Part shown: one piece after another, positions 413 through 56,417 of the stretch
Numbering within the stretch: position 1 is the stretch's first letter
How the letters are laid out: each line of letters starts with the position of its first letter
Virus record (IMG/VR): IMGVR_UViG_3300038425_000083
Span: 12,069-76,068 of that record
DNA length: 64,000 bases
Direction: 5' to 3' (one strand)
Source of the DNA: a virus
Made by a program: the position numbers and the translations under genes
The notes under the pieces: model-generated
What the model was told of the DNA's origin: nothing
Database searches by the model: none
Seen by the model: only the letters and a program-made list of their open reading frames with translations

Positions 413-784
413 ATGAGACAAGCTGAAATAACTACAATAGACGAAGAGTTCAGAAGTAGACATCCTGGCCCAGTAGTAGATGGCTTAGAGAAGTCTAGCG
501 AATCTGCTAAGAAAGCCTGGCAAACAAGACGTAGAGGATTTAAGGGTATACGAAAAGTTATCCCAAGAGTCGGGAGAACAAAAGCGGAACAAGAGTTCTT
601 GAAGAAAGAGAACAAGGGAATCCAAAAGCTTTATGCCGATGTCTATGGTAAAAAGAAAGCAAGCAAGATCCTTCAACACGTCAAGGAGGCTACTCGGCAA
701 GGTTTGATAAAGCCTGGCATGAAGAAGACTCCGAGCAAATGGAAAGAGTATCTAAAGAAACGTGAGATAGAAGCAGGCAACTAA
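413..784 (+). CDS. basic tagged protein (ITTIDEEF leader; LEK|SSESAKKAWQTRR)
   Basis: AGGAG RBS; one copy of the repeated tag (K codon at 491); Lys/Arg-rich remainder. Confidence 0.75.
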   Translation: MRQAEITTIDEEFRSRHPGPVVDGLEKSSESAKKAWQTRRRGFKGIRKVIPRVGRTKAEQEFLKKENKGIQKLYADVYGKKKASKILQHVKEATRQGLIKPGMKKTPSKWKEYLKKREIEAGN

Positions 785-1596
785 TGAGTTGGTGCGACCT
801 TAGTGGATTGAGATTTGGCAAAGTAACAGTCGAAAACATGGCAGGCTCCACTACGAAGAGTTTGTTATGGAGATGTATATGTGATTGTGGCAGCGAAATT
901 GTAGTAGAGACAAATGCCCTCACTAATACTTTAAGTTGTGGACATTGTAAACCTGGCATAAGAAAGAGAGCAAAGACTAAACCTAATTATAGACATCATT
1001 GCAACATAAACTTTGTAGATAATCCCAACGAGGCAACCGACCTAACAGAAGGGAGACGTGCTGAATATAATCCGAAATACCAGTATGAGGGTCGATGGAA
1101 AGCCGACGTTGAACGTTATGAGAGGAGACATGAAATGATTTGTGAAAGATGCGGATGTGAACTGAAGATGGGTCTTGGTGATTTAACAAGAGGACAAGTT
1201 GTTGAACTTCTCGAGCAGGCCGTTCTGGATAAGAAGATAGATGATATCAAATTGTTCCGGTATGAAGGAAGTCGTGGAGCTTGGCCTTTTACCAAAGAGG
1301 AGGAAGCAATCTTAAGAAGTTATCTGCCTGGCTTCGAAGCCTATGAGTCAGGGGTTAGAAGAGTTATAAGAACAGATTCAGATCAACCCCCAGGCAAGAG
1401 AAAGTTTGTTAGAAAAGTTAGAACCAAAGATCGTAAGATGGAAGAACCTCCTGATCTTGAAGAGTTTGGGAAGAGTCTAAGAAACTTTGGAAGAGTTTCT
1501 GGTATAACAGGACGAGAAGGTCTTGACCTTAATGATGTAACGATTGGAAGAGACGAGTATGACCAAACTCCAAGGGACGATCCGGCAAACTTTTAA
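784..1596 (+). CDS. HNH/AP2-associated Cys-rich N-terminal domain fused to a copy of the scaffold C-terminal domain
   Basis: DLSGLRFGKVTV..WRCICDCG..SCG motif; segment 1183-1323 is 26/47 identical to the scaffold C-terminus; possible internal start ATG1135 after AGGAG. Confidence 0.7.
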   Translation: MSWCDLSGLRFGKVTVENMAGSTTKSLLWRCICDCGSEIVVETNALTNTLSCGHCKPGIRKRAKTKPNYRHHCNINFVDNPNEATDLTEGRRAEYNPKYQYEGRWKADVERYERRHEMICERCGCELKMGLGDLTRGQVVELLEQAVLDKKIDDIKLFRYEGSRGAWPFTKEEEAILRSYLPGFEAYESGVRRVIRTDSDQPPGKRKFVRKVRTKDRKMEEPPDLEEFGKSLRNFGRVSGITGREGLDLNDVTIGRDEYDQTPRDDPANF

Positions 1597-1620
1597 AACA
1601 TAAAAGTAAAGGAGCCTGTT

Positions 1621-1899
1621 ATGTGGAAACATAAAATTGAAGATGACGGTAAGATTTTATTCTGGAAAGATGAAGAGAATGATGGAGGACAAAGTCCATC
1701 GGAACAAAAGATGCAGACGTTTTGGATTTGGGATACAAGAGATCTTGTCGATCTAAGCAAGGACATCGACCAGGCAAAGCTTGACTATTCTAAAAAGTTT
1801 AAACACAATCATTCAAAAGAAGCTCGGAGAGTTATAAGAACAGAAAATGATTCCTCTCCGATGAGAATGAGAAAGTTTGAAGGACTTGTAGTACAATAG
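1621..1899 (+). CDS. hypothetical protein with RRVIRT motif
   Basis: AGGAG RBS; shares RRVIRTxxDxxP..RKF with ORF 784. Confidence 0.65.
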   Translation: MWKHKIEDDGKILFWKDEENDGGQSPSEQKMQTFWIWDTRDLVDLSKDIDQAKLDYSKKFKHNHSKEARRVIRTENDSSPMRMRKFEGLVVQ

Positions 1900-1907
1900 G
1901 AGCTCAC

Positions 1908-2753
1908 ATGATTGTTAAAGAAAAAGGCGGGTGGAGTGTTAAGTCAGAGAAGGGTAAAAACCTTGGGGGCCCATACAAGTCTCGAGCTCAGGCTAAGAAA
2001 CGTCTTGCAGAGGTTGAGAAGTTCAAACACATGAATAAATCAGTATCAAGCTATAAGACACAATCTCCCTGGCCTTGGGAAAAAAGTATACCAGATCAGT
2101 TTTATTACATCAATGAAGGCGGAGCCGATCTTGCAAAGACATCTGAAGGAGCTCGTAAAGCATGGGAGACACGTAGATCGGGTGGAAGTCGTAGGACAGA
2201 ACCTTTCCGATCAGGCGAGCCCAGGTTCACGAAAGAGGAAGAAGAGAAAGCTAAGCAGCCTACATGGGATAGTGTCCAGAAAGAAAAGGATGAATTGATT
2301 GGAATAGCCAGAGCTCATGGGATTGAAGTTGTAGATAGTTCTTATAACACTTTAGGAATCAAAGACCCGGAGAAGAAAGCAGACATATATGAAGGAAATG
2401 TTTCATTAAAGTTTTATCCCACACCGGTCGAAAGAGCAGGACAACCATTTAGTGCCCCTTGGACTAACGATCAGCATAAAGATATGATGGCTAAGTTTCA
2501 GCATATTAGAGATCAGGCAAAAGAGAAAGGGTGGAAAGTTGAGCCTCGAGCATTGCCCAATGTTCTTATAAGAGGCAAGTCAATAGGAAGTGCCCGAGCA
2601 GGAACAAGTCGATGGATGCCTTCATACTATGTGACATATCTTACTAAGCAGGCACTTATGACTGCAGCTCCACAACTGAAACCAAGACGACAGATGCAAC
2701 TTGACAAAACTCTTTATGTTGTCTTGGACTTGAAGAAGTCAAGAGAGGATTAA
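1908..2753 (+). CDS. tagged multi-module protein
   Basis: N-terminal small module (WSVKSEKGKNLGGPYKSRAQAKKRLAEVEKFK), LAK|TSEGARKAWETRRSGGS at 2136, C-terminal YVVLDLKK|S. Confidence 0.75.
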   Translation: MIVKEKGGWSVKSEKGKNLGGPYKSRAQAKKRLAEVEKFKHMNKSVSSYKTQSPWPWEKSIPDQFYYINEGGADLAKTSEGARKAWETRRSGGSRRTEPFRSGEPRFTKEEEEKAKQPTWDSVQKEKDELIGIARAHGIEVVDSSYNTLGIKDPEKKADIYEGNVSLKFYPTPVERAGQPFSAPWTNDQHKDMMAKFQHIRDQAKEKGWKVEPRALPNVLIRGKSIGSARAGTSRWMPSYYVTYLTKQALMTAAPQLKPRRQMQLDKTLYVVLDLKKSRED

Positions 2754-2936
2754 ATGACAGTCAAAGACTTATTTGAAAAGTGGTGGTCTGTTTGGCATTT
2801 GAGAGAAGGAATGGGCCCCGTGCCTGAAGAGCTAACAGTTAGGCACAAACTTGGCCCCGATGATCCAGGTGGTACATGGATGCTTAAAAATTTATTATAC
2901 ATAGCCTTTGTTGAAGGATACAAAGAACGGAAATAA
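2754..2936 (+). CDS. hypothetical protein
   Basis: 60-aa ORF tightly packed between neighbours, GAGGA RBS. Confidence 0.5.
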   Translation: MTVKDLFEKWWSVWHLREGMGPVPEELTVRHKLGPDDPGGTWMLKNLLYIAFVEGYKERK

Positions 2937-2937
2937 T

Positions 2938-3342
2938 ATGGCACTTACAAAACGATCAGCTATCGATCTTTTAGAAAAGGCTGTCATGGATGGTAAGTTG
3001 CCTGACAGTTTACTTTATCAAGTTGAAGGTGGGGAAAGGGTTAAGCTTGATGAAAAGCAAGCTGGTATTCTCTTGTCTTATACAGAAGACTTCAAACCAA
3101 CCTTCAGACCAAGCCGTCCTCCTTTACCGGCAAGGACTATTGAAAAGATTTCAGAAGACCTTAAAGACATCTACAAGATGAGAAGAGATGCCCAGTTTCA
3201 TCGTCCAGCATATCAAGTCTTTGATAATAGAGTAAGATACACAAGAGAGGAATGGCAGAAGTTAGAGAAAGCCGAACAAGCAAAAGAAGATGCTAAGTAC
3301 TCGTTCCCTAAAGCGAGAAGAGTTATAAGGTGTGAGGGATAA
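2938..3342 (+). CDS. protein with scaffold-like domain and RRVIR motif
   Basis: MALTKRSAIDLLEKAVMDGKLPDSLLYQVEG..ILLSY matches the scaffold C-terminus; start moved to ATG2938. Confidence 0.7.
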   Translation: MALTKRSAIDLLEKAVMDGKLPDSLLYQVEGGERVKLDEKQAGILLSYTEDFKPTFRPSRPPLPARTIEKISEDLKDIYKMRRDAQFHRPAYQVFDNRVRYTREEWQKLEKAEQAKEDAKYSFPKARRVIRCEG

Positions 3343-8901: not shown

Positions 8902-9180
8902 ATGGATAATGAAAATGCTCGTGAAGCATGGCTATTGCAGATAGAAAGAACTAAAAATGGTTATATACTTTTAGGGAATGATGGCCTGAGTGTTATTGAA
9001 GAAGATGATCAAGATGAACTTAAAGAACACGAGAAACTACTTTGGGCAGTCATGGAATATTTTGGTTTTCAAGGAAGCAAACATGACAAGCAACGTTTAC
9101 GAGTCATGCGAGAACAACAAGAGATTGGAATAGGAGACCAGACAATTAGGAGGGATAATGAAAGTTCAGGATGTAATTAG
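8902..9180 (+). CDS. hypothetical acidic protein
   Basis: GGAGG RBS before ATG8902. Confidence 0.6.
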   Translation: MDNENAREAWLLQIERTKNGYILLGNDGLSVIEEDDQDELKEHEKLLWAVMEYFGFQGSKHDKQRLRVMREQQEIGIGDQTIRRDNESSGCN

Positions 9181-9598
9181 CATCGGTGATCTTTATAAGG
9201 CCGTAGGTCATAAATATTTTAGCAAGAAACCAATCGGAGGAGGAAAATACAGATACAAGTATGTTTACCCTGAAGTTGTTTCAGGCAAGGAAGTCCTGGC
9301 TGCAGGTGAAGGCAAACCATCCCAGGCAGCTTTAACAAAGGTTAGAGAAGAAAAGAAAGTAGAGAAGACTTTGTGGGATCACTTAAACAGAGCAAAGACA
9401 GAAATCAAAGAAAAGTTTGGAAAGTTTGATATAGAACCGAGTCATGGAGGCCATGCTGTCATCCTAAAGTTTAAAGACGGAGCCAAGGCTTTAGCCCATA
9501 TGTCAGGGCGAACTAAAGATGATAAGCTTTTGATTGATACCGAGTGGCGAAGCGAACCTTATGTTCCAAAGCAACCCACATTTTATGTGAAAGAATAA
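9158..9598 (+). CDS. tagged protein (VISIGDLYK|AVGHKY..GGGKYRYKY tag)
   Basis: GGAGG RBS; the same HKY tag occurs inside the MuF polyprotein at 45823. Confidence 0.75.
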   Translation: MKVQDVISIGDLYKAVGHKYFSKKPIGGGKYRYKYVYPEVVSGKEVLAAGEGKPSQAALTKVREEKKVEKTLWDHLNRAKTEIKEKFGKFDIEPSHGGHAVILKFKDGAKALAHMSGRTKDDKLLIDTEWRSEPYVPKQPTFYVKE

Positions 9599-9600: not shown

Positions 9601-10059
9601 ATGACAAAATATAATAGTCTGGGAAAATTTGGAAAAGATTATTCTAATAAACGTTATAATGATAGAAAAGATGACCCTGAGTTCAAAGAACTTAAAAGTA
9701 ATCAATCAAAGAGATTTTATAAAAAGCACACTACTCGAGTTCTTGAAAAATGTAAAAAACGGAGAGATGATTTAAGAGACCAGGTTTTAAAGGCCTTTGG
9801 CCCATGGTGTGCAAATCTTTGGAATTGTCCGATTCCGAGTGAAAAATTGGATGTGCGAAGCTTGCAAATAGATCATATCAATAATGATGGTTATGAAGAT
9901 AGAAAAAAGTATAAAGGTAGAGGAGCAGCATATTATAAAAAAGTTTTAGCTCATCAAGAGGATTATCAACTTCTGTGTCCTTACTGTAATTGGATGAAGT
10001 TTATTAAACAGGATAAAACTAAGGCTGGAAAGAAGTCTTGGGTTCTGAGGAGAAAATGA
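9601..10059 (+). CDS. HNH endonuclease
   Basis: LQIDHINNDG ... YQLLCPYCN. Confidence 0.8.
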   Translation: MTKYNSLGKFGKDYSNKRYNDRKDDPEFKELKSNQSKRFYKKHTTRVLEKCKKRRDDLRDQVLKAFGPWCANLWNCPIPSEKLDVRSLQIDHINNDGYEDRKKYKGRGAAYYKKVLAHQEDYQLLCPYCNWMKFIKQDKTKAGKKSWVLRRK

Positions 10060-10268
10060 AAGCAGTAATTCAAACCATTGACGAGTTTATAAAATCAAGA
10101 ACTAAAGGTGCTAAAGACAAATTTAAAAGAAGACATAAGCCTAGTCCACCTGTTAATCTTGGTGAAAAGATAACAGCTTCTTTAGGCCAACAGATAAAAG
10201 AGCTCGAAACTCTGCAAGAGCGGAACAGAAGATTAGATAAACTCTTATCAGAGCAGGATAAAGAGTAA
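10056..10268 (+). CDS. tagged small protein (IQTIDEFIK|SRTKGAKDKFKRR)
   Basis: GAGGAG RBS before ATG10056; tag similar to that at 5058. Confidence 0.7.
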   Translation: MKAVIQTIDEFIKSRTKGAKDKFKRRHKPSPPVNLGEKITASLGQQIKELETLQERNRRLDKLLSEQDKE

Positions 10269-10402
10269 AAGAAAGAGGCGTCAGCATGAAAGACAAAATG
10301 CGTAAGAAAGTTAAAAACACAAAAGCCTGGAAAGTACGGCATGTGATTGCTGTTAAGGAAGAGGCTAAGACAAAAAAAGACATGATTGAAAAGGGAGTCA
10401 GT

Positions 10403-11170
10403 ATGAAAGTTCAAGTTATTAGTTTAGATGAGGAGTTTGAAAAATCAACCGAGTCTGCCAAGAAAGCTTGGAAGAAAAGAAAACATGGGAAAGCATTCCA
10501 GTTCGGAGAAGGACGTGGTTATGTAGGAGGCCCGCCAGAGGGAGATCCATTTCCTCATAAGAGATCGTTAGGCTGGAAGAAATGGATAGAGAGAAATCCG
10601 GACTGGATTAAAGAGCATCCAAAATGGAAACCCCCAAAAGTGACAGGTATAACTTTTAGGAGACCAGGCTCAAAACTAAAGAAAGCCGAAGGACAAGTTG
10701 TTATTCCGGCTCACATGGCAACCGTCCATGGTAAGAAAGTTATGGTTCAGCAATCAATACCTTTCATGGCTCCTGGAAGACACGGAGATTATACCAAGAA
10801 AGTTCACACAACGGAGAGGGAAGAAGGGGGTAAAACTCATATCAAATATCATACAACTGATGTAGTGTCTTTTGATTCCAATGAGATAACCTTAAGAGAT
10901 GGTGGATGGATGACAAGTTCCACAAAGAAGAGAATTAACCAAGCTTCAACAGAGCATGGACTTGGCATTAGCATCTTTCAGCATAAGAATGATTGGTTTG
11001 TTGCATACAAAGGAAAGACTATTCCTTTCAGAGACGAAATGACAATCAATCGTGAAAGAGGAGATACTCATTATGACAAATGGTTTGATATGACAGAGAA
11101 GGAAAAGAAAACTCTGGCAAGTTATGAAAAACGGTATCATCGAGCGGAAGAGATGGCAGGCCGCAAATAG
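10403..11170 (+). CDS. two-unit tagged protein
   Basis: VISLDEEFEK|STESAKKAW (10442) and LKK|AEGQVVIPAHMATVHGKKV (10682); C-terminal YHTTDVV..GGWMTSSTKKRINQ domain; start ATG10403 after GGGAG (ORF track starts 10286). Confidence 0.75.
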   Translation: MKVQVISLDEEFEKSTESAKKAWKKRKHGKAFQFGEGRGYVGGPPEGDPFPHKRSLGWKKWIERNPDWIKEHPKWKPPKVTGITFRRPGSKLKKAEGQVVIPAHMATVHGKKVMVQQSIPFMAPGRHGDYTKKVHTTEREEGGKTHIKYHTTDVVSFDSNEITLRDGGWMTSSTKKRINQASTEHGLGISIFQHKNDWFVAYKGKTIPFRDEMTINRERGDTHYDKWFDMTEKEKKTLASYEKRYHRAEEMAGRK

Positions 11171-11171
11171 C

Positions 11172-14100
11172 ATGGAACAGATACAAGCTGTAAAGAAAAC
11201 AATTTATGGGACTCCTGTTTACTTTGTTAAATCCTCTGAAGGATCAAAGAAGGCATGGGAAACAAGAAGATATGGCGGAAGTCGCAAAGACCTTACTAAG
11301 ATAAAGCAAGATCATGAAGACCTAAAGAACAAATACAAAGACCTTATAGAATGGAGTAGAACAGACTCATGGGAGAGGCCAGAGTTCTCTGGTTCGCCCG
11401 AGACCGTAAAGAAGTTCATAGCAGACGTTCAAACTCATCATACGAAGATGGTCGATGCTTTTGGAAAGAACAAAACGAACATAGGTATCGAGGAGGATTT
11501 AGGAAGAGCAACCAAGAACCCTAATGTTCAAGGATCGTTTGGTAATGCTTTAAGTGCTCTTTATGGGATGGAAGATAAGATAAGATGGCTTAACCGCTAT
11601 CTCCCAAAGGAACAAGAGAAAGGGTGGAAAGGCAAGGAAAGATCAGAGGCAAGCTGGAAGGAGCTCATGTCAAAGTCATCTGAAGGAGCAAAGAAAGCAT
11701 GGCTAACAAGAAAATATGGCGGAAGTCACGCAGCATTAGAAGACAAGAAGTCTAGAGAATCTTTCAAGAAAGAGTTTTCGCTCAGTGATGTTGAAGGCGG
11801 TTCTAAAGATGATGTTCAGAGGCTTCACGAATCTTTAAAAAAGATAAATGAAAAAATACAGATTGATGGGAGAGGTAAACTATCCTTCAGTATTAAAGCC
11901 CCTCTTCAAAAGACTTGGTTCGGAGATTTCGATGAGGGAAATGATACCATAGAGATACATCCGAAACATCTTGAGAAAGTTGAACATGAGTATCTTCATT
12001 TTGTTTTTAAATACAGATTTGGAAATCCTATGAGAATAGGCCCAGATCATTACGATAAGTTTGGAAGTAAAAGATTTAGTATTCTTGACCAAAAAGAAAT
12101 ACCCGATTATGAATCGTTTAAAAAGGTAAAGTCAAAAGGATCATACGAGGATTATCATAAATTTGCAAGGGCGTTCGGTCGAAAATTATTTAAAAAGATA
12201 ACTCCTGAAGGTTTAGAAGATTCATTTGATGCATTTATTAAAAAGGTTGCAGATAATAAATCTTTAGATGGGGGGAAGAAAAAAGCGTTTACAGAACTTC
12301 TTCAAATATATAGGAACTTTTATACGAAACCTGGTATCTTAAAAAAGATGCAAGATTTGGTAGATCTCCCTGTTTATGCATTAGAACCTACAGAACTCTT
12401 TGCGAGAGCTGGGGAACTTTACATGCATGGAACAACTTGGTCTTTGGATGTTATCGAAGCTGATCTTACAGGAGAACAGGATTTAAAAGAGGACAAAGCC
12501 AAGAACGTAGCTTCAACTAAATTATTTCAAAGTCAGATTAAAGGGTGGGGAAACAAATATCTTAAAACCGGAGTTATGAGTAAATCTCTTTTTGTTATCT
12601 TTGAGAAATCTTCGGAGGGGGCAAAGAAAGCTTGGTTGACAAGGAAGTTCGGAGGAAGTCACAAAGGAGAAGAGAAGCCAAGTCTTAAGGGTCTTTCTTC
12701 TAAAGCTATTTTAGAGATGAGTCCAGAGGATCGTGAGAAATATCTCAAAGACATGGATTCATGGAATGAAAAGTTTGGCATTCCTAAAAAGATTGAGGTA
12801 TCCGAAGCCAACATTAACAGATTTGTCGATAAACCAGATGAGGCTATAAGAGAGTATAACAGCATCCAGCAGAAGTATGAGATAAAAAAGAAAACAAGTG
12901 TTAAGAAAACAAAGAAGTCTAAATCTAAACCTAAACCATTTAAGATGCAACTGGTCATTCCTCATGAGGAGACTGAAAGGAGAATTCATGAACATCTTCA
13001 ACAAGCGAAAAGAGAATCGTCAACGACACGTTACTTGGAAGGACGTACTCACGATGTGGACATATGGACAAAAGAGGATTTATTGGCTGCAGTGCCTAAG
13101 TCTCCAAAAGGTTCTCAATTCTATGCCAAAACAAATGTCCAAAACATCAAGCGGGTCTTAGAGTTTAAAAAACCAAATGAAGTAGGTGGGATTCATACAA
13201 TCGTTGTTCTCGAGAATGGTAAACCAGTTTATCAATACATTGATACCACAACAGAGAAGAACTCAAGGAAGAAATTTGTACGATCAAAGAATGTCGAAAA
13301 GAATATTGGGGAGATACGAGCCTTCTATAAGAAAGGAATGGGCAAAACTGGATATGACAAGCAGATGGGTACTATCCTTTCATTGATTGACCTGTATACT
13401 ATTCGGGTAGGAAGCAAAGCAGATGTTGATGAAGGTGTGAGGAAAGTTGAAGACTTAAAGAATAGAGCTCTTATTAAAGCGCCAAAAGATATAGCAAGAG
13501 TACCATATGGGCTACCATATGATCGAAACACGGTTTATTACGTTTTTATTAAAGATGGGCAAAGGCTTATCGGCCCATCCGAGAGAATGGATGAGATCAG
13601 CGATGAGATCAACGAAGCCAGGAAGATAAAAGATAAAGCTAAAGTAGAAACTCTTAAGCAAGAGAAGAAAGACCTTGTTAAACCAATGCCCGAGGATTGG
13701 AAGGAAGTTTATAAGTTAGGACACTTTGGAGCAACCCAGTTAGAGGCCAGGCATGTCAAGATCGAGCCCGAGTATAAAGGAGTTGGAACTAATTTTGGAA
13801 GTGTTGTTCACCTTGATTTCATTGGTAAATCTGGGGTTCATTGGGAGTTCCCAGTTAATGATACTGGAATTGCAGAAGCTTTAGCCGATCTGTCCAAAGG
13901 TAAGTCCGGGCGTGATCCTATATTCCCGGATGTTAAATATCAAAAGGTTACGGGTTTGCTCAAAGATAATTGGAAGTGTCTTGCAAAAGATTTTAGAACT
14001 TATCATGCAACAAAAACATTTGCTGAAGCAACTAAAGATTTTCCAGTCCCAAAGACAGAGCAGGAACTCAAATCAATAGAAGGTCAGATATTGGAAAGAG

Positions 14101-14636
14101 TTTCTGGTTTGCTCTGGAACACGAAGGGAATGGCTAAGAAGTCTTATATTGACCCTGCTGTCTATGGAGCGTGGAGAGCAGGCTTATTAAAAGTAATGAT
14201 GGAAGCTGCCCCGATTAAGAAGTCATTGCTTTTTAATGTGATCTTAGAGAAATCAGTTGAAGGCACAAAGAAAGCATGGCTAACAAGAAAGTATGGAGGT
14301 TCCCACAGAGAGCAGAAAAGCTACTATACAACTTCTGGTGCTATGACGATGAAGGAGTTTATAGAAACTGAAGTTGAAGATAGAGGGAACTATCCTTTAT
14401 CTGAGGTTAGAGGCTGGATTAAAAAGTATGGTATCAAAAGAGATCAGCAAATTATGTGGGTATCCCCCAAGAAGTGGAGAGCTTATAGCTATACTCTTCC
14501 GGCAGAGGAAATGGATTCTGCAAGAGATGTAGATGAATCTAAAATGGATGTTACCGAAGTCAAAGGTAAAGAAGGTTTTATAATTCCAGAGTCAGACGAT
14601 GGAAGCGAAGGTTTTTTATTTGTTTTCAAGAATTAA
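11172..14636 (+). CDS. four-unit tagged polyprotein: unknown, zincin (LPD1/MPTase-like), DNA topoisomerase IB, unknown
   Basis: tags at 11229, 11673, 12606, 14250; HEYLH..EPTELFARA; TopIB motifs TIRVG, GATQLEARHV, FIGKSG, KDFRT, LWNT..AKKSYIDP. Confidence 0.85.
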   Translation: MEQIQAVKKTIYGTPVYFVKSSEGSKKAWETRRYGGSRKDLTKIKQDHEDLKNKYKDLIEWSRTDSWERPEFSGSPETVKKFIADVQTHHTKMVDAFGKNKTNIGIEEDLGRATKNPNVQGSFGNALSALYGMEDKIRWLNRYLPKEQEKGWKGKERSEASWKELMSKSSEGAKKAWLTRKYGGSHAALEDKKSRESFKKEFSLSDVEGGSKDDVQRLHESLKKINEKIQIDGRGKLSFSIKAPLQKTWFGDFDEGNDTIEIHPKHLEKVEHEYLHFVFKYRFGNPMRIGPDHYDKFGSKRFSILDQKEIPDYESFKKVKSKGSYEDYHKFARAFGRKLFKKITPEGLEDSFDAFIKKVADNKSLDGGKKKAFTELLQIYRNFYTKPGILKKMQDLVDLPVYALEPTELFARAGELYMHGTTWSLDVIEADLTGEQDLKEDKAKNVASTKLFQSQIKGWGNKYLKTGVMSKSLFVIFEKSSEGAKKAWLTRKFGGSHKGEEKPSLKGLSSKAILEMSPEDREKYLKDMDSWNEKFGIPKKIEVSEANINRFVDKPDEAIREYNSIQQKYEIKKKTSVKKTKKSKSKPKPFKMQLVIPHEETERRIHEHLQQAKRESSTTRYLEGRTHDVDIWTKEDLLAAVPKSPKGSQFYAKTNVQNIKRVLEFKKPNEVGGIHTIVVLENGKPVYQYIDTTTEKNSRKKFVRSKNVEKNIGEIRAFYKKGMGKTGYDKQMGTILSLIDLYTIRVGSKADVDEGVRKVEDLKNRALIKAPKDIARVPYGLPYDRNTVYYVFIKDGQRLIGPSERMDEISDEINEARKIKDKAKVETLKQEKKDLVKPMPEDWKEVYKLGHFGATQLEARHVKIEPEYKGVGTNFGSVVHLDFIGKSGVHWEFPVNDTGIAEALADLSKGKSGRDPIFPDVKYQKVTGLLKDNWKCLAKDFRTYHATKTFAEATKDFPVPKTEQELKSIEGQILERVSGLLWNTKGMAKKSYIDPAVYGAWRAGLLKVMMEAAPIKKSLLFNVILEKSVEGTKKAWLTRKYGGSHREQKSYYTTSGAMTMKEFIETEVEDRGNYPLSEVRGWIKKYGIKRDQQIMWVSPKKWRAYSYTLPAEEMDSARDVDESKMDVTEVKGKEGFIIPESDDGSEGFLFVFKN

Positions 14637-14850: not shown

Positions 14851-15399
14851 GTGTATTACGTCATCTTAGAGAAATCGAGTGAGTCAGCAAAGAAAGCGTG
14901 GGAGACCAGGCGAAGAGGTCTTGGCAAACAAAAGCCTACAAAGAAACAATCTGAGAAGAAATCTGAAGCTGAGTCGCTGGCGAGAGCTAAAAGAATTATA
15001 GCAAAATACCCCACATGGGAATCTTATCATGAATCCCAGAAGGGCACGAAGTATAAAGATTTCATCGGTAGAACTCAAGTCGTAAGAGATGCTGAACACG
15101 ACAAACGCAATTCAAGATATATGTGGGAAGCAGCAAAGCAATGGGTTGATGCAGGTGGAAGCCCGGCAAAGAAATCAGCTATCAAATGGGATAAAACTCT
15201 TTCTGTAGCCCCGGGAGGAAAAGGTTATTTCTATACAGCAAACACTCCGAGAGGAAGAGTTTGGGTTGTATGGGATAGGGTCAACAAGAAGTGGAAAGTA
15301 GATCATGATTCTGGTAAGCCAAGTCATGAATCTATAAAACACGAACGTTTCAAAACTGCCGAAGAGGGATTGAAGGCCGTGGCTAAGTGGCTTGAATAA
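14851..15399 (+). CDS. tagged protein (YYVILEK|SSESAKKAWETRR)
   Basis: GTG start after GAGGA; tag at 14872. Confidence 0.75.
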   Translation: MYYVILEKSSESAKKAWETRRRGLGKQKPTKKQSEKKSEAESLARAKRIIAKYPTWESYHESQKGTKYKDFIGRTQVVRDAEHDKRNSRYMWEAAKQWVDAGGSPAKKSAIKWDKTLSVAPGGKGYFYTANTPRGRVWVVWDRVNKKWKVDHDSGKPSHESIKHERFKTAEEGLKAVAKWLE

Positions 15400-18342: not shown

Positions 18343-18552
18343 ATGAGCACTCTTGAAATAAAATGTTCGATTTGCGGTGAAAATGTGGTATGGATTAGCG
18401 ATATAGGCACTTCTAATGACCTATTTCGTGACCATTTGAAAACTCATAAAGAGCATGACGTTGAAACCTTATACCCTGCGACATTTAAAAATATGAAAAT
18501 GATGGGATACTTTGAAGCTCCTATGGTCAGAAGGGTAATAAGGACAAGCTAA
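18343..18552 (+). CDS. C2H2-like Zn-finger protein ending in RRVIRTS
   Basis: CSICG..HLKTH; C-terminal VRRVIRTS. Confidence 0.6.
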   Translation: MSTLEIKCSICGENVVWISDIGTSNDLFRDHLKTHKEHDVETLYPATFKNMKMMGYFEAPMVRRVIRTS

Positions 18553-23241: not shown

Positions 23242-23450
23242 AAGAGATAGACGAGAACGAAGCACACTTCTTAAAACAATTACTCATCTATAATCATGAG
23301 ATGAGACTAAAAATTGGGGCAAGATTGGTTGTTATAATGAGCGATCATTGCAAAGGTTGTGTTAATCAACCTCCTTGTTGGAATGGACTTATTTTATTTA
23401 ATGATTTGACTATATCCAACAAGAGATGTGTTAATAGGAGAACGAAATGA
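23238..23450 (+). CDS. hypothetical Cys-containing protein
   Basis: GTGA overlap with upstream ORF; AGGAG RBS. Confidence 0.5.
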   Translation: MKEIDENEAHFLKQLLIYNHEMRLKIGARLVVIMSDHCKGCVNQPPCWNGLILFNDLTISNKRCVNRRTK

Positions 23451-23662
23451 GAAGAGGAAAAGTACCAGGCGAATATTATGTTATCTTAGAGAAATCTCGA
23501 AGGAGTGGAGGGTTTAGACTCGCAAGGCATGAACTTGGTGAAGAAGAATCTGCTGCTGGAAGAAAACGAAGACGCAAAGAAGGAAGTTGGACTCCTCACC
23601 TTGAAAGATTTAGGGAGCGGGCAAGAGAAAGAAGAGAGGAGCAAGAAGCCCCTGAGGCCTAA
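23447..23662 (+). CDS. tagged Arg-rich small protein (YYVILEK|S)
   Basis: AGGAG RBS; leader identical to ORF 14851. Confidence 0.7.
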   Translation: MRRGKVPGEYYVILEKSRRSGGFRLARHELGEEESAAGRKRRRKEGSWTPHLERFRERARERREEQEAPEA

Positions 23663-28336: not shown

Positions 28337-28476
28337 GGTTGATTATAAAATGTTGTTCACCTAAATGTTCAAAATGAAGCCAAAAAAGCAGAAAAGTTCC
28401 GGAATTCCGGAAGTGATTCTTCATTTTGAAGCCAAAAGCAGAATAAATTCTCAAATTGAGGATGGAAATCTCAAAA

Positions 28477-30420: not shown

Positions 30421-30489
30421 AGCATTACGTGAAAATTGAAACTTGAATAACCGCCCATGAAAAATTGATACTCTCTTTTGTGGGTTAGT

Positions 30490-37771: not shown

Positions 37772-37919
37772 TTATGTCATTTTGAAAAAGGCTGAGAAGA
37801 AGTTACCAGATCATAACTCTATGCAATTTCACAAGGAACTTTTTGAAGTAGAAGATGATCTGATGGATTACTTAGACACATTGGAGAAAGAACCAAAGCA
37901 TGAGGCTCGTAATTCTTAA
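37752..37919 (+). CDS. small tagged protein (YVILKK|A), not in ORF track
   Basis: MAKLLTNYVILKKAEKKLPDHNSMQFHKELFEVEDDLMDYLDTLEKEPKHEARNS. Confidence 0.6.
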   Translation: MAKLLTNYVILKKAEKKLPDHNSMQFHKELFEVEDDLMDYLDTLEKEPKHEARNS

Positions 37920-39732
37920 ATCAAGCGAAAGTGCACGTAGGGCATGGGAAACAAGAAGATATGGAGGTTCTCATACAACCCTATCGACCGAACGCTCTGA
38001 ATATTACAAAGAAAGAGAAAAGCTTGACAAAGAGGTTTTTCTTAATGAGCTTCCAAAGTTTAGGGAAGAACTTAACATAAAAAAGTTTTATACAAAATTT
38101 CCTAAAGTGTCTTCTCAGATCGAAGAGAAGTTTCGAACTATTACTGAAAGTTACAGAAGCGGTGGTTTAGATGACTTGGGTGCTAAACCAGAAGAAGTAA
38201 GAGAGAAGATGCAAGTTGTTAAAGATGAAATAAAATCGTGGGGCGACAAACTTCAATTTAATGGAAGAGGTAGACTGTCTATTAAAGTCGGCACCATACC
38301 AAAAAGAGGAAGACATAAAACCTATGGTATGTACTACCCTGGGATTCAAGTTTTAGAAGTGGATCAAAGATACAAAAATTCTATAGCTCATGAGTATGCT
38401 CATTTTATTTTTGATGACAATGGATGGGAAGATAGCTACAAAGATAGTTTAGTTCATGGGAATTTCGATGAGGCTTATGAATTTGGGTTTACGAATTTTT
38501 TAGAGAAATTTTCTCAAGATATGGAATTTGTTCCCTCTGACATAAGTTCTGCAGGCACAGCTGCTACAATTAAAAATCAAGGGAAAGCACTTATAGAACT
38601 TTTCGCTCAGCTAAAAGATTTTTATAAACTTCCAGATGTTATGGAAAAATTTAAGAAAAGTCAAGACCCTCCTATCATTTGGGCGTCTACTGAGGCTTTA
38701 TCGGATAAGCAAAAGCTTACTCGAGAACGGATTGAACGGACGTTCGCCAGAGGAGTTTATAAAAGAGTTCAGAATCGTATGAAGTATCTATTTCGTCCAA
38801 CCGAAATATTTGCAAGAGCTGTTGGGTCATATGTATCAGAGGATTTTATTTCTAACCCGGTTGAAAAAGATGATAGATACAAGGCAATTGTAAAAGCCTG
38901 GGGTGATAAGTATCTGAAGACTGGTATTGTGAAGAGTTATGTGATTCTTGAAAAAGCCCAGATACAGATTAAGCCTTCTTTTAGGCATACGGCTTCTGGT
39001 AAGATAGTTCCTGTCAAAGGATTTACAGTTGAAAGGGAAACTTTTGAGCATGCCGTTCTTGCCGATGAATTTTTCAAATCACTTAAGGAGATTGAAGGAT
39101 CAGATTGGCAATTTGAACCCGGCGAAGTTTTTGATATGGGTGATAAAATAAATGTTGAAGTTAGATTGTGGGACCGAAGTAAGAATATCACAGAACTTGA
39201 ACCTTATAGAGCAAAGGGAACTTCTTTAACACGCTATAAAAAGATGTCTGGATACATTGGTCGTTTTGAATTGAATTTTCTTAAGAATGGGAAAGATGTG
39301 TATCTATCATCTTTATTTTTAAAAGACGAGTGGCAAGGTAAAGGTGTTGGCAATGATTTAATGAAGCGAGCTATAGACTTTGGAATTTCTAAAGGCTTCA
39401 AAAGTTTTGAACTCTTTGCAAATGGGGATGTCGGAACTTATGCGTGGGCTATCCAAGGATGGGATTTTGTTAAGAAAACAGAGAAACAAGATTTGCTTGG
39501 AGACTTTTGTAAATGGCTAAAGAAAAAATATAATGTAGAGAAAAATCCTCTGGATTTTCCTCATGCTTGGAATATAGCAGCGTTTAGAATAGGAGATGAG
39601 AAAGTCGGAAAAAAATTTATGACTGGAGATGGTCATAATGATTTCTGGGAAGGCGCTCTTAACGTTGGTAGCAAAGGCTACAAATTGTTTAAGGAATATC
39701 ATAGATTAAGGTTACTAAGGAAAATGAGTTAG
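37900..39732 (+). CDS. two-unit tagged polyprotein: zincin (LPD1/MPTase-like) and GNAT acetyltransferase
   Basis: LVILK|SSESARRAWETRRYGGSH; AHEYAH..PTEIFARA..WGDKYLKTGIVK|SYVILEK|A; QGKGVG acetyl-CoA motif. Confidence 0.85.
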   Translation: MRLVILKSSESARRAWETRRYGGSHTTLSTERSEYYKEREKLDKEVFLNELPKFREELNIKKFYTKFPKVSSQIEEKFRTITESYRSGGLDDLGAKPEEVREKMQVVKDEIKSWGDKLQFNGRGRLSIKVGTIPKRGRHKTYGMYYPGIQVLEVDQRYKNSIAHEYAHFIFDDNGWEDSYKDSLVHGNFDEAYEFGFTNFLEKFSQDMEFVPSDISSAGTAATIKNQGKALIELFAQLKDFYKLPDVMEKFKKSQDPPIIWASTEALSDKQKLTRERIERTFARGVYKRVQNRMKYLFRPTEIFARAVGSYVSEDFISNPVEKDDRYKAIVKAWGDKYLKTGIVKSYVILEKAQIQIKPSFRHTASGKIVPVKGFTVERETFEHAVLADEFFKSLKEIEGSDWQFEPGEVFDMGDKINVEVRLWDRSKNITELEPYRAKGTSLTRYKKMSGYIGRFELNFLKNGKDVYLSSLFLKDEWQGKGVGNDLMKRAIDFGISKGFKSFELFANGDVGTYAWAIQGWDFVKKTEKQDLLGDFCKWLKKKYNVEKNPLDFPHAWNIAAFRIGDEKVGKKFMTGDGHNDFWEGALNVGSKGYKLFKEYHRLRLLRKMS

Positions 39733-53680: not shown

Positions 53681-53689
53681 GAGATAACA

Positions 53690-54211: not shown

Positions 54212-54907
54212 ATGGCAAAAGAAGAAGAAAAGAAAGAAGAAAAAAAGGAAGATTTGAAAAAGGTCGATGAGAAGATTGAAAAGAAAGAGCCCGAGATCAC
54301 TGAGGACGAACTTAAGAAATCTCTCAAAGACTTAACTGACATTATCAAGGCTGGACGTGCTCCCGTAGTTACCGAAGAAGAGGAAGAGGACGAAGACGAG
54401 GAAGAACTTGAAGAATCCTTTACCGGAAACTTTGAAGAAAACGAGACCATTGCGAAAGCTATTGAAGTGTCTGACTTCCTTGCCGATCTCGTAGAACAGA
54501 CAGAGACATCTCTGGAAGCTGTTGGAAAATTGGTTAAATCACTTCAAAAATCTGAGGAAGTTTTCGATCAGAAGTTCGTTGATGCCCTTGGAAATATTTC
54601 CAAGAAATTTGACGACATGGATGCTCGTCTAAAGAAAATTGAAGATACACCAGTTGCCGCAGGACCAAAGACAATTCAGAAGTCGGTTCAGAAGATCGAA
54701 AAATCATTTACGGCTTCCGGGAAAGAGGTTGAAGGAACAGATGAGTTAGCCGCTTTACCGAAGAGACAGGTCATGGCCCTTTTGGAGAAAGCAGTTGCAG
54801 ATAACAAGATCAAAGATTCAACGTTATTTGCTTACGAAGGATCGCCTGGCGTGTTTAAATTTAATAGTGAGGACGAAGAAATCCTCAAGTCCTATATCAA
54901 GAAGTAA
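54212..54907 (+). CDS. capsid scaffolding protein
   Basis: acidic/coiled-coil protein between protease and MCP; nine (L/I)xK|(S/A) sites. Confidence 0.78.
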   Translation: MAKEEEKKEEKKEDLKKVDEKIEKKEPEITEDELKKSLKDLTDIIKAGRAPVVTEEEEEDEDEEELEESFTGNFEENETIAKAIEVSDFLADLVEQTETSLEAVGKLVKSLQKSEEVFDQKFVDALGNISKKFDDMDARLKKIEDTPVAAGPKTIQKSVQKIEKSFTASGKEVEGTDELAALPKRQVMALLEKAVADNKIKDSTLFAYEGSPGVFKFNSEDEEILKSYIKK

Positions 54908-54920
54908 AATAGGATTCTCT

Positions 54921-54948
54921 CACAGGGTTTTAACAACCTGTGTTTTTT
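54921..54948 (+). terminator. terminator-like hairpin between scaffold and MCP
   Basis: CACAGG...CCTGTG followed by TTTTTT. Confidence 0.45.
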
Positions 54949-55004
54949 AGATTCAAAATTTTTGAAATACGGATACTTCCAAAAAAGGCAGGTGTAATAA
55001 AATA

Positions 55005-56417
55005 ATGATCTCAATGAAGGACTACGAGCAGACTGATGGTTTTGGGATGGCTACCTGGGAAGAAGTTGCAGAGTTGAACAAGGCTCTTGCTGCGGGCTAT
55101 GATATTCCTGCTACGTCAGGAGGTATCAGCGGTTCCGCTTTAAGGGTTGAGTCACTTGAATCTTCTTTGAAGGTGATCACTTACCAAATGCAACACATTA
55201 AGTTCTGGCAGAAGATCCCCAAATTGCCTGCTTATAGTACCGTTGAAGAGTACAACCAGTTGACTTCTTATGGTTCAGAAGCTGGTGCGTTTACTCCTGA
55301 AGGAGAACTTGGTGAATTCGATGATGCTACTTATCAAAGAAAGGTTTCATTAGTGAAATACCTCCAAACCGTTCGAAAAGTTACCCATCCGTTAACATTG
55401 GTTAGGGCAGCTCACGGCGACGTTGTAGGAAATGAAATCCGAAATGGTATCATGTGGTTAATCGGAAAAATCGAGAACTACCTATTCTGGGGAAACAGCA
55501 AGCTGAGACCTACGGGTGCAGAGGGTTATGAGTGGGATGGAATCAATATTTTGATTGATCCCTCTATGGTGATTGATGCTAAGGGAGAACCCCTTGGAGA
55601 AGACATCTTAGAAAGCGCTTCTAACACTATTGTTGAAAACTACGGTTTTCCAACTGATATCTTTATAGGTACAAGGCCGTTGGCGGATTTAGCTAAAGTA
55701 ATGTTCCCTAAAGAAAGGATAGTTGTTCCTTACAAGGAAGGTCAAGTTGGTGTGCCTTTAAATACCTTCGCTTCACAGGCTGGTATTTTGGCATTCAATC
55801 CTGACGTTTTCTTGAAGAAGAAGGCTTGTCCTGTTGCTGCCACTTCAGGCAAAGCACCTACCGCACCCTCAAGTGTTACTATAGCACAGCGAACAACTAC
55901 AGGGCTGGGAGGCGATTGGACGAAGACTGGCAACGCTTATGGAACTTACTACTATGTTGCAACATACGGAAACAGATTCGGAGAATCAGCTCCATGTGGT
56001 GTTCAGCACAATGCAAATGCTGCAATCACAGCCGATACTGATGAGATTACTGTAGCAGTTATGACAACTACCTATTCGATTGCTCCCGATTACGTGAACA
56101 TCTATAGGTCAGTTGCCAATGATGCAACTGGTACAAGATATCTTGTTTATTCAGGCCCGGTTGATGATCCCGGAACAAGCACGACCGGTAAAGCATGGGT
56201 TGATGTGAACGCTATCTGTGCTAATTGCCATAAAGTATTCTTGGGCGAGTTAACTCCTCAAGTTATTGCTTTTAAACAGTTAGCCCCTATGATGAAGATG
56301 GATTTGGCGGTTGTTGAGCCAAGTGTCCGTTGGTTACAATTACTCTATGGAGTACCTCAAATATATGCTCCTAAAAAGTGGATTATAATCAAGAACATTG
56401 GTGAAGCTTCTGTTTAA
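55005..56417 (+). CDS. major capsid protein (SPO1/A511/K-like)
   Basis: ELNK|ALAAG..GSALRVESLE, IPKLPAYSTVEEY, IE..LFWG, EWDG, Fn3-like insertion (YYYVAT..NRFGESAP), QLAPMMKMDLA..WLQLLYG.P..YAPKKW..IKN. Confidence 0.92.
   Translation: MISMKDYEQTDGFGMATWEEVAELNKALAAGYDIPATSGGISGSALRVESLESSLKVITYQMQHIKFWQKIPKLPAYSTVEEYNQLTSYGSEAGAFTPEGELGEFDDATYQRKVSLVKYLQTVRKVTHPLTLVRAAHGDVVGNEIRNGIMWLIGKIENYLFWGNSKLRPTGAEGYEWDGINILIDPSMVIDAKGEPLGEDILESASNTIVENYGFPTDIFIGTRPLADLAKVMFPKERIVVPYKEGQVGVPLNTFASQAGILAFNPDVFLKKKACPVAATSGKAPTAPSSVTIAQRTTTGLGGDWTKTGNAYGTYYYVATYGNRFGESAPCGVQHNANAAITADTDEITVAVMTTTYSIAPDYVNIYRSVANDATGTRYLVYSGPVDDPGTSTTGKAWVDVNAICANCHKVFLGELTPQVIAFKQLAPMMKMDLAVVEPSVRWLQLLYGVPQIYAPKKWIIIKNIGEASV

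Follow-up and report, generated by a model that had tools for sequence, protein, structure and literature searches.

In SPO1-like heads (Herelleviridae) the major capsid protein (MCP) is trimmed after a lysine near residue 23-26 and the scaffold is degraded. Encapsulins use short, portable cargo-loading peptides to send diverse enzymes inside an HK97-fold shell. In phage T4, the internal proteins IPI-III and Alt carry a capsid targeting sequence (CTS), which the prohead protease gp21 removes (Mullaney and Black, 1996, cited after PMC10052503 and PMC12991175), and gp245, the prohead protease of the phiKZ-like phage SPN3US, processes proteins of the head, the inner body and ejection at an A-X-E motif, with 14 sites in 9 substrates (PMC10052503). 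Moreover, polyvalent and MuF-fused effectors have been proposed to be packaged and injected (Iyer, Burroughs, Anand, de Souza and Aravind, 2017; PMC5512222). Hence, leader-plus-cleavage addressing is already known from T4 and phiKZ-like phages, as is the processing of many substrates (PMC10052503), and lysine specificity is a common trait of SPO1-like heads. In these respects the first-pass interpretation of the present locus is overstated, whereas no description was found, in the literature searched, of polyvalent enzymes that carry shared tags in a cassette grammar.

The window analysed here, a stretch of 64,000 nucleotides, is best explained as the head-gene region, in expanded form, of a peat/wetland phage that is uncultured and has an SPO1-like head (Table 1). 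The genes for terminase (phrog_2, L006:9528-11171, on the 12 kb of contig that precede the window), portal, MuF, protease, scaffold and MCP are scattered across about 60 kb, and the gaps are filled by tagged genes. About 20 ORFs among these head genes, as many as the first-pass annotation had counted, carry a short hydrophobic leader, a lysine site and an interchangeable basic tag. This shared grammar is genuine and well above chance, and its presence on so many head-region proteins suggests that many enzymes are probably brought into the capsid and separated by cleavage once inside.

Table 1. Features of the window. A vertical bar marks the junction; numbers in brackets after a site are nucleotide positions of the K codon, followed by the tag type.
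Product	Position	Strand	Leaders and junctions	Modules and matches
123-aa protein	413..784	+	ITTIDEEF...GLEK27|S (491, KAW)	
HNH-like protein	784..1596	+		phrog_374 HNH aa 5-94; scaffold C-terminal domain copy aa 131-181
281-aa protein	1908..2753	+	internal DLAK77|T (2136, KAW)	
144-aa protein	2908..3342	+		aa 12-58 copy scaffold C-terminal domain
Polyprotein, 1007 aa	3345..6368	+	K8 (3366, KAW); K145 (3777, KAW); K572 (5058, Lys/Arg-rich); K622 (5208, hairpin); degenerate KAW at 5847 and 6174	phrog_3308 (aa 464-550), Lar-like zinc ribbon (aa 795-837), each within inter-junction segments
146-aa protein	9158..9598	+	VISIGDLYK14|A, HKY (GHKYFSKKPIGGGKYRYKYVY)	
Small protein	10056..10268	+	VIQTIDEFIK|S (10092, Lys/Arg-rich)	
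Kyano_Gp96-like protein	10403..11170 (longer ORF variant begins at 10286)	+	N-terminal MKVQVISLDEEFEK|S (10442, KAW)	Kyano_Gp96-like domain
Polyprotein, 1170 aa (ORF11124)	11124..14636	+	four KAW junctions: K36 (11229); K184 (11673); K495 (12606); K1043 (14250)	148-aa unit; zincin HEYLH unit ending WGNKYLKTG; topoisomerase IB unit (Pfam Topoisom_I E 4.9e-21, aa 866-1003); 127-aa unit
182-aa protein	14851..15399	+	(M)YYVILEK8|S (14872, KAW)	
731-aa protein	18552..20747	+	N-terminal LFNVIDLGK10|S, hairpin-like; WGAKYLKTGIVK|S (~20139, hairpin)	zincin HEYGH module, ending at the second junction; C-terminal phrog_2563 module
347-aa protein	20789..21832	+	RVFSVDELLK13|A (20825); KAW 9 residues on (20852)	
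Small ORF	23447..23660 (end approximate)	+	MRRGKVPGEYYVILEK|S, Arg-rich	
Two-site protein	24452..25120	+	IVRTLDEIKK|S (24494); internal DEFDELAK|T (24881, KAW)	
Portal protein	25945..27615	+		phrog_12 E 2.5e-54
496-aa protein	28456..29946	+	LLFHVIDLQK19|S (28510, KAW)	zincin motif HEFGH at aa 296
440-aa protein	33191..34513	+	SYIILEK18|A (33242, Lys-rich)	
HAD-type phosphatase-like protein, 177 aa	37238..37771	+	MYKFVILEK9|S (37262)	
Small protein, 55 aa	37752..37919	+	NYVILKK13|A (37788)	
Two-module protein, 610 aa (ORF37900)	37900..39732	+	N-terminal MRLVILK7|S (37918, KAW); YVILEK352|A (38953, hairpin)	zincin HEYAH module ending WGDKYLKTGIVKS; GNAT acetyltransferase
Small zinc-ribbon protein, 54 aa	41717..41881	+	KFVILKK13|S (41753)	
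MuF polyvalent protein, 2230 aa	43015..49707	+	K209 (43639, hairpin); K937 (45823, HKY); K1224 (46684, hairpin); K1729 (48199, hairpin); K1884 (48664); K2140 (49432)	Pfam MuF, HATPase_c, PolyA_pol, HD; modules MuF; GHKL ATPase + zincin HEFTH; ART-like; CCA-adding enzyme + HD; small module; zincin HEVGH; C-terminal module
Prohead protease, long form, 515 aa	52133..53680	+	ILAK340|S (53150, KAW)	phrog_1028 E 4.5e-39; catalytic domain aa 29-165; MCP N-arm copy aa 246-283; small helical domain aa 304-335; C-terminal helical domain aa 433-514
Scaffolding protein, 231 aa	54212..54907	+		phrog_15087
MCP, 470 aa, SPO1/Herelleviridae type	55005..56417	+	LNK26|A27 (55080)	phrog_752 E 9e-100

The most characteristic tag, KAW (consensus K[ST]SEGAKKAWxTR[KR]xGGSH), was located with an HMM of the tag in 15 full copies, scoring 32-46 bits, and 2 degenerate ones, every one in + strand ORFs; the HMM search found none in the other reading frames, nor in the 12 kb before the window. 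Fourteen full copies begin at a lysine codon (Table 1), and in the 15th (20852) a T replaces this K while K|A sits 9 residues upstream. The DNA coding for the tags is on average only 60% identical and mixes TCN with AGY serine codons, which indicates that selection acts on the peptide. Leaders of the (Y/F)VI(L/I/F)EK type, noticed already in the first-pass annotation, are also far from chance (12 matches to VI[LIF][EK]K[SAT] vs 0.2 +/- 0.5 in shuffles), and its second leader class also exceeds expectation (4 regex matches vs 0.1), but follows a looser pattern. Shine-Dalgarno-like sequences back the starts it had chosen at 10056, 10403, 23447 and 24452.

The lysine site itself, h-x-K-[SA], occurs 78 times in the tagged ORFs where 34.6 are expected (z 7.9), including 21 sites vs 7.4 expected in the MuF protein. 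By gene class the enrichment is confined to tagged ORFs and scaffold; it is seen neither in MCP, portal and terminase together (5 vs 3.6) nor in the early region (11 vs 8.4) nor downstream of the MCP (4 vs 6.7). The basic tags are evident too, since the 20 residues after the junction have a mean net charge of +3.6 (27 junctions) vs a background of +0.8 +/- 2.5. However, many h-x-K-[SA] matches fall within likely folded domains, so that cutting cannot be predicted from the motif alone.

The head proteins bear on the meaning of the site. The MCP is 42-47% identical to Herelleviridae MCPs and matches the structures PDB 9vel (SPO1 gp6.1), 5lii and 9row. Exactly one h-x-K-[SA] site is present in it, as the first-pass annotation had stated; it aligns to VVK24|S of the phage 812 MCP, for which 5lii is the full-length protein (463 aa) and 9row_B the deposited mature chain (439 aa), beginning directly after the aligned lysine. 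The site thus coincides with a known mature N-terminus. In 4/4 related MCPs the aligned lysine site is again the only one. The scaffold contains all nine sites reported before, vs 1.3 expected (z 7.2), with predicted fragments each shorter than 45 aa, and 6/6 related scaffolds carry 9-12 sites vs about 1.2 expected. It also has an acidic tract (aa 52-69). The last 50 aa of its C-terminus are copied into two other proteins, ORF 784..1596 (53% identical along 51 aa; E 3e-11 in the within-proteome comparison) and ORF 2908..3342 (48% over 48 aa, E 2e-6); in the former, the copy is possibly a second, tag-independent way into the prohead.

In its AF2 model the protease has the assemblin/gp21 fold, with Foldseek matches to herpesvirus assemblins and T4 gp21, and H68 and S124 are invariant across 31 homologues. 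The MCP mimic within it is 61% identical over 38 aa. The junction between the catalytic part and the conserved C-terminal domain is conserved (DLIFK|A in relatives, ILAK|S here), and the tag behind it varies by lineage. The first-pass interpretation of the grammar as a prohead protease code is partly supported by these results: the site corresponds to the one at which homologous SPO1-like capsid proteins mature, scaffold enrichment extends across the clade, the protease has a suitable predicted fold and tagged genes fill the head module. However, the lysine specificity is a family trait and not new.

The relatives of the window phage are all metagenomic, and the large set of tagged cargo is peculiar to this uncultured clade. 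Stand-alone genes in relatives start with the leader at positions of the window phage's internal junctions. P0012, for example, matches module 1 of ORF11124 (aa 32-185), starts with MFYVIIKK|S and ends 3 residues past the next junction lysine, and the stand-alone GNAT genes P0104, P0105 and P0106 begin with a leader where ORF37900 has its internal junction (position of aa 347). In the MuF protein, homology blocks start 2-4 residues before K937, K1224 and K2140 and stop at K209 and K1884, and its ART-like module with HKY tag stands at a different position in L052. Hence, the junctions coincide with module boundaries, where the first-pass annotation had placed them. Leader and tag are retained in P0008, a homologue of ORF 28456..29946 (37% identity), and are common to ORF 413..784 and its relatives P0018 and P0043. 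The tag types, i.e. helical KAW, beta-hairpin, HKY and a plain Lys/Arg run, are interchangeable; the first three swap for one another within one slot among relatives, as in P0046, the orthologue of ORF 9158..9598, with KAW in place of HKY. Regardless of the tag that follows, P1 is Lys and P1' a small residue at every junction of the clade. On sequence comparison, the exchangeable unit is the cassette of site, tag and cargo.

Outside this clade, the KAW tag was also found in unrelated phages without the preceding lysine, of which the first-pass annotation was unaware. The complete 120-kb phage G002 has 10 KAW tags preceded by [QKE][AS][YFH]G, a pattern not recurring in its protease-scaffold protein. 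The tag alone does therefore not imply cleavage by a prohead protease.

From these data we infer, with good support, that the junctions are cut by the assemblin-fold prohead protease and that the tagged proteins are loaded into the capsid. Gene order, scaffold-domain copies and the MuF fusion provide a head context that counts for loading, as do the cargo types, which match those of polyvalent proteins for which packaging and injection have been proposed (PMC5512222); the T4 CTS and SPN3US gp245 provide precedents. Each cassette comprises a short hydrophobic or acidic leader, the h-x-K|S/A site, a basic tag and a cargo domain (topoisomerase IB, GNAT, HAD phosphatase, CCA-adding enzyme with HD, ART-like fold or zincin), either as a single gene or in in-frame polyprotein fusions that include the MuF polyvalent protein and the protease. 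The tagged proteins would be co-assembled into the prohead, some via MuF/portal, two through the copied scaffold domain and the others by leader and/or tag, with the basic tags possibly binding the acidic scaffold. The protease would then trim the MCP at K26, shred the scaffold and also cut each exposed junction, and the freed modules, with a basic tag at the new N-terminus, may associate with the incoming DNA and be ejected together with it. We regard this as the best overall explanation, with a likelihood slightly above even.

Compared with the described systems, the proposed one resembles the T4 CTS in an N-terminal leader of about 10 residues that ends in the consensus site of the prohead protease, in the protease fold and, if the proposal holds, in basic or enzymatic cargo injected with DNA. 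However, the T4 site is L/I-x-E| and there is no sequence similarity; moreover, the unit found here also occurs inside polyproteins, has conserved interchangeable tags behind it and is present on about 20 proteins including polyvalent enzymes, for which targeting is predicted. Herelleviridae share the homologous head module and a protease with the same MCP-arm mimic. The cultured Bacillus phage YungSlug (Herelleviridae) shows the same MCP-site and scaffold-site pattern, but in this one cultured relative inspected the protease is short (247 aa), and the PARP-like protein beside it has no site enrichment (3 vs 3.6), yet a hairpin-tag-like start. Encapsulins are an analogy only: they work without protease or DNA, have another consensus and showed no similarity in sequence. 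As inferred for the window phage, phiKZ-like giants use a single morphogenetic protease with a simple motif on many head proteins and the MCP, and their protease cuts itself at the C-terminus. In contrast, they remove N-terminal propeptides of 20-254 residues (PMC10052503), descriptions of them mention neither a shared tag nor a cassette structure, and their substrates are not multi-enzyme polyvalent proteins. With polyvalent proteins (PMC5512222), the locus has multi-domain proteins with ART, zincin, NTase, ParB-like, GNAT and TopIB-type modules near portal/MuF genes in common. For those, MPTase self-processing is proposed, and text searches of the paper returned no protease-site junctions or shared tags, whereas each module boundary here has a head-protease-type site and a tag.

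The cargo itself offers another processing enzyme, namely six zincin modules, which the first-pass annotation overlooked. Zincin (MPTase-like) metallopeptidases might process the junctions in cis or trans, either prior to packaging or following injection; Iyer et al. hypothesised this for polyvalent proteins (PMC5512222). All six HExxH motifs lie within tagged ORFs; three of the modules are paralogous, match LPD1 weakly, have an E(I/L)FARA motif further downstream and end in WG(D/N/A)KYLKTGxxK|S right before the junction, also in 7 related proteins. The two zincins of the MuF protein match WLM and ATLF weakly, and this protein also gives a weak Tpt1/PARP match. Nevertheless, the Pfam matches are all under the curated cut-offs, many tagged proteins have no zincin, the zincins are plausible as effectors too, and h-x-K|S/A also marks MCP and scaffold, substrates of the prohead protease also in Herelleviridae without such zincins. 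Processing by zincins is thus unlikely.

Doubtful, too, is the view that most junctions stay uncut and that leader, lysine and tag together are a conserved linker or handle that defines exchangeable cassettes, with a common binding activity per module (DNA/RNA, scaffold, portal or host factor) and a resemblance to protease sites that is partly coincidental in Lys-rich proteins. The strongly basic tags would fit it, as would the KAW tags without preceding lysine and the small proteins consisting solely of tandem KAW repeats, some of them in archaeal MAGs; transfer without any cutting is described for N4 vRNAP and for several polyvalent proteins of plasmids (PMC5512222). But the fixed residues at P1 and P1', whatever the tag, homology blocks that start with the site itself, enrichment limited to cargo and scaffold, and leaders at the extreme N-terminus, 7-15 residues long with the site at their end and in this similar to the T4 CTS, all favour cleavage. 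Finally, many copies within one genome and tandem cassettes could suggest repeats that arose as a side effect of recent duplication or gene conversion and have no function of their own. This is extremely improbable, as it is contradicted by the divergent tag DNA with its mixed serine codon families, by copies on unrelated cargo, by conservation of the motif in other phages and by tags that swap inside conserved slots.

A repeated peptide grammar runs through the genes that lie among the head genes of this phage. With one profile, the KAW tag K[ST]SEGAKKAWxTR[KR]xGGSH was found in 15 full and two degenerate copies, all in plus-strand ORFs, while neither the other frames nor the contig's first 12 kb held anything comparable. 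Since the tag DNA is 60% identical between copies and both serine codon families occur within one column, conservation acts on the peptide and not on the DNA. Beside these 17 KAW tags, the window encodes at least seven beta-hairpin tags and two HKY tags, each of the latter two types following K↓S/A (the arrow marks the candidate cut). For the leader VI[LIF][EK]K[SAT], 12 occurrences were counted where 0.2 would be expected, and another, acidic class of leader (h-I-x-T-I-D-E-E-F-x-K) is present in looser form. At least 12 ORFs begin with a leader of 7-19 residues ending in h-x-K↓S/A, i.e. hydrophobic-x-Lys before Ser or Ala, which is the motif of the sites in the major capsid protein (MCP) and the scaffold. 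The 231-aa scaffold has nine of these candidate prohead protease sites where 1.3 would be expected, the MuF polyvalent protein 21 (7.4 expected) and the protease itself eight (2.5 expected); the MCP has a single one, LNK26↓A. By gene class, the site is enriched only in the scaffold and in the tagged ORFs, where 78 sites stand against 34.6 expected (z 7.9); no enrichment was found for MCP, portal and terminase, for the early region or for the genes 3' of the MCP. Furthermore, the 20 residues after a junction, as we call such a site between modules, carry a mean charge of +3.6 vs +0.8 in the background (n=27). The first-pass annotation had described the tag and leader grammar, the nine scaffold sites and the lone MCP site, all of which the counts bear out. 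It had also named a comparison with shuffled Lys-rich controls as a refuting test, and the enrichment by gene class answers this test in its favour.

Judged from the sequences of relatives, site, tag and cargo move as one unit, and four comparisons lead to this conclusion. A stand-alone metagenomic homologue of 158 aa (P0012) matches the topoisomerase IB polyprotein ORF11124 over its residues 32-185 with 66% identity, starts with MFYVIIKK↓SSEG and ends three residues past the Lys of the next junction. Stand-alone GNAT proteins start with MKYVIK↓A (P0104), MYYVIK↓A (P0105) or ...GYVILEK↓A plus a hairpin tag (P0106), and all three align with the zincin-GNAT protein ORF37900 from its residue 347, which is its internal junction YVILEK352↓A. 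For these two modules only, the search for shorter homologues returned stand-alone counterparts. Six related contigs encode MuF polyvalent proteins that share blocks with that of the window phage, and these blocks break at K209, K937, K1224, K1729, K1884 and K2140; homology typically begins 2-4 residues ahead of the junction Lys and the sequence further upstream is unrelated. An ART-like module with its HKY tag stands directly after MuF in one related contig (L052) and after K937 in the window phage. Finally, tags interchange in a fixed slot: ORF9158 has an HKY tag and its orthologue a KAW tag, and related proteases mostly carry DLIFK↓A and the hairpin tag GYxRTRRGxLERVKPF, whereas the protease of the window phage and its nearest relative carry ILAK↓S and a KAW tag, with the same C-terminal domain after either tag type.

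The window comprises bases 12069-76068 of a source contig of 76,068 bp without terminal repeat, and all its genes are on the plus strand. Terminase, portal, MuF, protease, scaffold and MCP surround and alternate with the tagged genes. The MCP shares 42-47% identity with SPO1-like/Herelleviridae MCPs, its best solved relative being SPO1 gp6.1. An identical protease sequence is present on contigs up to 179 kb, hence the phage genome exceeds the contig. Its DNA was detected in numerous peat and wetland metagenomes, and no RNA dataset is listed among the sequencing runs that contain it. Searches of GenBank phages gave no match to the DNA, the tag peptide or the GNAT cassette, IMG/VR gave no relative when searched with the protease, and the ESM Atlas gave no usable match. 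The tag search in IMG/VR returned K-type tags only, in single copy each, in three fragments.

Features of the window phage and of the cultured Bacillus phage YungSlug (L005); L006 is the 12 kb upstream of the window, all other coordinates are those of the window
Feature	Position	Strand	Remark
Large terminase	L006:9528-11171	+	just 5' of the window
Portal	25945-27615	+	inside the window
MuF polyvalent protein, 2230 aa	43015-49707	+	inside the window
Prohead protease	52133-53680	+	match to phrog_1028
MCP N-arm copy in protease, aa 246-283	52868-52981
Scaffold, 231 aa	54212-54907	+	nine h-x-K-[SA] sites
MCP	55005-56417	+	SPO1-like/Herelleviridae type
Mature MCP N-arm, aa 28-65	55086-55199
Scaffold-domain copy in ORF784, aa 131-181	1174-1326
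Scaffold-domain copy in ORF2908, aa 12-58	2941-3081
HExxH motifs	ORFs 11124 (aa 288), 18552 (aa 393), 28456 (aa 296), 37900 (aa 164), 43015 (aa 740 and 2000)
ORF with N-terminal tandem GYSG/TSGYSG repeat	30478-31146		Gly-Tyr-Ser rich
Radical SAM-like gene	31146-32243		sits among cargo genes
Family 9 glycosyltransferase, heptosyltransferase-like (Pfam E 5e-32), and further ORFs	59124-63707		directly 3' of the head genes
YungSlug 'PARP polymerase'	L005:3094-5703		just 5' of the portal
YungSlug protease	L005:7479-8222		with MCP N-arm copy

The catalytic domain of the protease (aa 29-165) is modelled by AF2 with pLDDT >90 in an assemblin-type fold, for which Foldseek returned the KSHV protease (E 1.3e-4) and T4 gp21 (5jbl, target TM 0.54). 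His68 and Ser124 are invariant across 31 homologues and are candidate catalytic residues. The MCP site LNK26↓A is aligned with VVK24↓S in the MCP of Staphylococcus phage 812, for which the PDB holds the full-length protein (5lii, 463 aa) and a 439-aa chain (9row_B) beginning exactly after the aligned Lys. Solely by homology to phage 812, the protease would be predicted to cut its own MCP after the N-arm Lys. The A511 protein Cps is reportedly cut after Lys-23. YungSlug has the MCP sequence DLNK↓ALSAGY, 11 sites in its scaffold (1.2 expected) and six in its protease (0.7 expected). Among the metagenomic relatives fetched via the protease, a single MCP site was present in all four complete MCPs, and 9-12 sites were present in each of six scaffolds, with about 1.2 expected. 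From the aligned MCP site of phage 812 and from the MCP sites and site-rich scaffolds of YungSlug and the metagenomic relatives it follows that the predicted h-x-K cutting is a trait of the SPO1-like family and not new; what is special are the other places where the site occurs. A complex prediction for protease aa 1-180 (31-row alignment) with a leader plus tag peptide scored 0.00 (mark 0.32), which speaks neither for nor against an interaction.

The protease also contains a copy of the mature MCP N-arm (LAAGHDNPASSGGISGSALRRQSLD vs LAAGYDIPATSGGISGSALRVESLE; 61% likeness over 38 residues), and such a copy, including the K↓S site, is found in the YungSlug protease and across the metagenomic clade. 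This mimic may be an entry route of these proteases into the prohead. Related long-form proteases (P0086, P0089, P0083, P0085, P0090, P0096 and P0097) have the extra Pfam domains PF09537, PF18905 and PF20106 according to database-precomputed annotation. In P0086 and P0089 an insert 5' of the MCP mimic is ferritin/rubrerythrin-like as read by eye, which would recall encapsulin cargo.

It could be argued that the polyvalent junctions are self-processed by the zincin modules (HExxH metallopeptidases) in the cargo instead of being cut by the prohead protease, and metallopeptidase self-processing of polyvalent proteins was proposed by Iyer et al. 2017 (PMC5512222). The predicted proteome has six HExxH motifs, each of them within a tagged ORF, and three paralogous zincin modules with E(I/L)FARA, whose matches to LPD1 reach E 0.002-0.03 and stay below the gathering score, end with WGDKYLKTGxxK↓S immediately before a junction, as they do in relatives. 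However, the prohead protease is favoured because the junction motif is identical to the MCP and scaffold sites; phages without such zincins share these sites. The first-pass annotation, which had assigned the cutting to the prohead protease, is supported by this identity, but it had overlooked the rival offered by the six zincins.

The KAW tag is not confined to this phage. Among 1.84 billion representatives, 52 proteins matched the tag profile at E <= 0.001, all of them metagenomic and mostly foreign, and many of the foreign proteins are large and carry 2-6 copies together with ART, 2H-phosphoesterase, SNF2 plus TopIB or GNAT domains. Foreign tags mostly begin with x-G-T-S-E-G, and the residues before them are uniform inside one protein but vary across proteins (K↓AG, K↓DG, N[SA]↓G, A[YH]↓G, E.E.↓G), which would fit lineage-specific P1 residues. 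One complete foreign phage of 120.7 kb with direct terminal repeats (G002, IMGVR_UViG_3300025581_000001; L018-L020 and L025-L027) has an unrelated head module with a protease-scaffold fusion and a 331-aa MCP. Its 10 KAW tags each follow [QKE][AS][YFH]G, and in this one phage the pre-tag motif was not found in the protease-scaffold protein, hence the KAW tag is an independent module. No model in Pfam, PHROGs or NCBIfam covers the tag, and our literature search found no description of it. Several proteins of about 70-350 aa (P0023/P0059/P0060, P0017, P0029, P0031, P0035, P0037 and P0051) are for the most part made up of KAW-type repeats (SEAAKKAWxTRR), two or three in tandem, and two identical tandem-KAW copies come from the annotation of Nitrososphaerales archaeon MAGs (MEM4201549.1 and MEM3510653.1).

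The junctions bear on two questions: how polyvalent multi-enzyme proteins enter phage heads, and whether such proteins act as a single chain or as individual enzymes. As with the T4 capsid targeting sequence (CTS), a short N-terminal leader on non-structural cargo predicted for the head ends in a head-protease-type site; in contrast, P1 is Lys in the window phage and Glu in T4 (L/I-x-E↓ cut by gp21), and the leaders show no similarity. Because specificity and sequence differ, the window system falls outside the T4 CTS family, although it would work in a CTS-like way. The predicted multi-substrate processing is a likeness to phiKZ-like phages (PMC10052503). As in the polyvalent proteins of Iyer et al. 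2017, at least two unrelated effector-type domains occur per polypeptide (MuF + GHKL + PolyA_pol/HD; TopIB + zincin; zincin + GNAT), and the genes likewise lie amid virion and packaging genes, including a MuF fusion. Encapsulins differ in that the shell here is a portal-bearing phage MCP, and by sequence inspection the tags are unlike the encapsulin consensus. The tag and cleavage code had initially been considered new, which does not hold for the lysine specificity; a putative head-protease-type site at every polyvalent module boundary, interchangeable and widely shared basic tags right after the site, and the same cassettes as single genes or fusions do seem undescribed.

As a tentative generalization, which we consider possible rather than probable, tailed phages would possess a portable cargo code in which a lineage-specific head-protease site is joined to a shared basic tag (KAW, beta-hairpin or HKY) serving as handle for loading, DNA tethering or ejection. 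Enzymes bearing the cassette would be loaded into the head, released by cleavage and injected; polyvalent proteins would be strings of cassettes. The coincidence of module boundaries, head-protease-type site and shared tags yields explicit testable predictions. If the grammar holds, the injected arsenal of uncultured phages could be listed from sequence only, that of the window phage amounting to about 9,200 cargo residues with topoisomerase IB, CCA-adding enzyme, GNAT, ART-like fold and six zincins, and a handle to load foreign proteins into SPO1-like capsids would be at hand. A truly portable code would make virion-delivered effectors predictable across uncultured phages and cargo loading engineerable. 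The system, with its predicted cleavage, packaging and leader/tag roles, is of high interest for research on phage assembly and counter-defence.

Further signs of capsid addressing come from the scaffold, of which the C-terminal approximately 50 residues are copied with 53% identity in ORF784, a protein with HNH-like N-terminus, and also in the N-terminus of the small protein ORF2908. In well-studied scaffolds such as that of P22, the C-terminal part binds the coat protein. The duplicated domain suggests a second way for proteins into the prohead. The 'PARP polymerase' of YungSlug, a member of the Herelleviridae, starts hairpin-tag-like (MPVQRMVTRDGKTFQTTVWVK), so published virion proteomes of such phages might already reveal whether or not hairpin-tagged proteins enter the virion.
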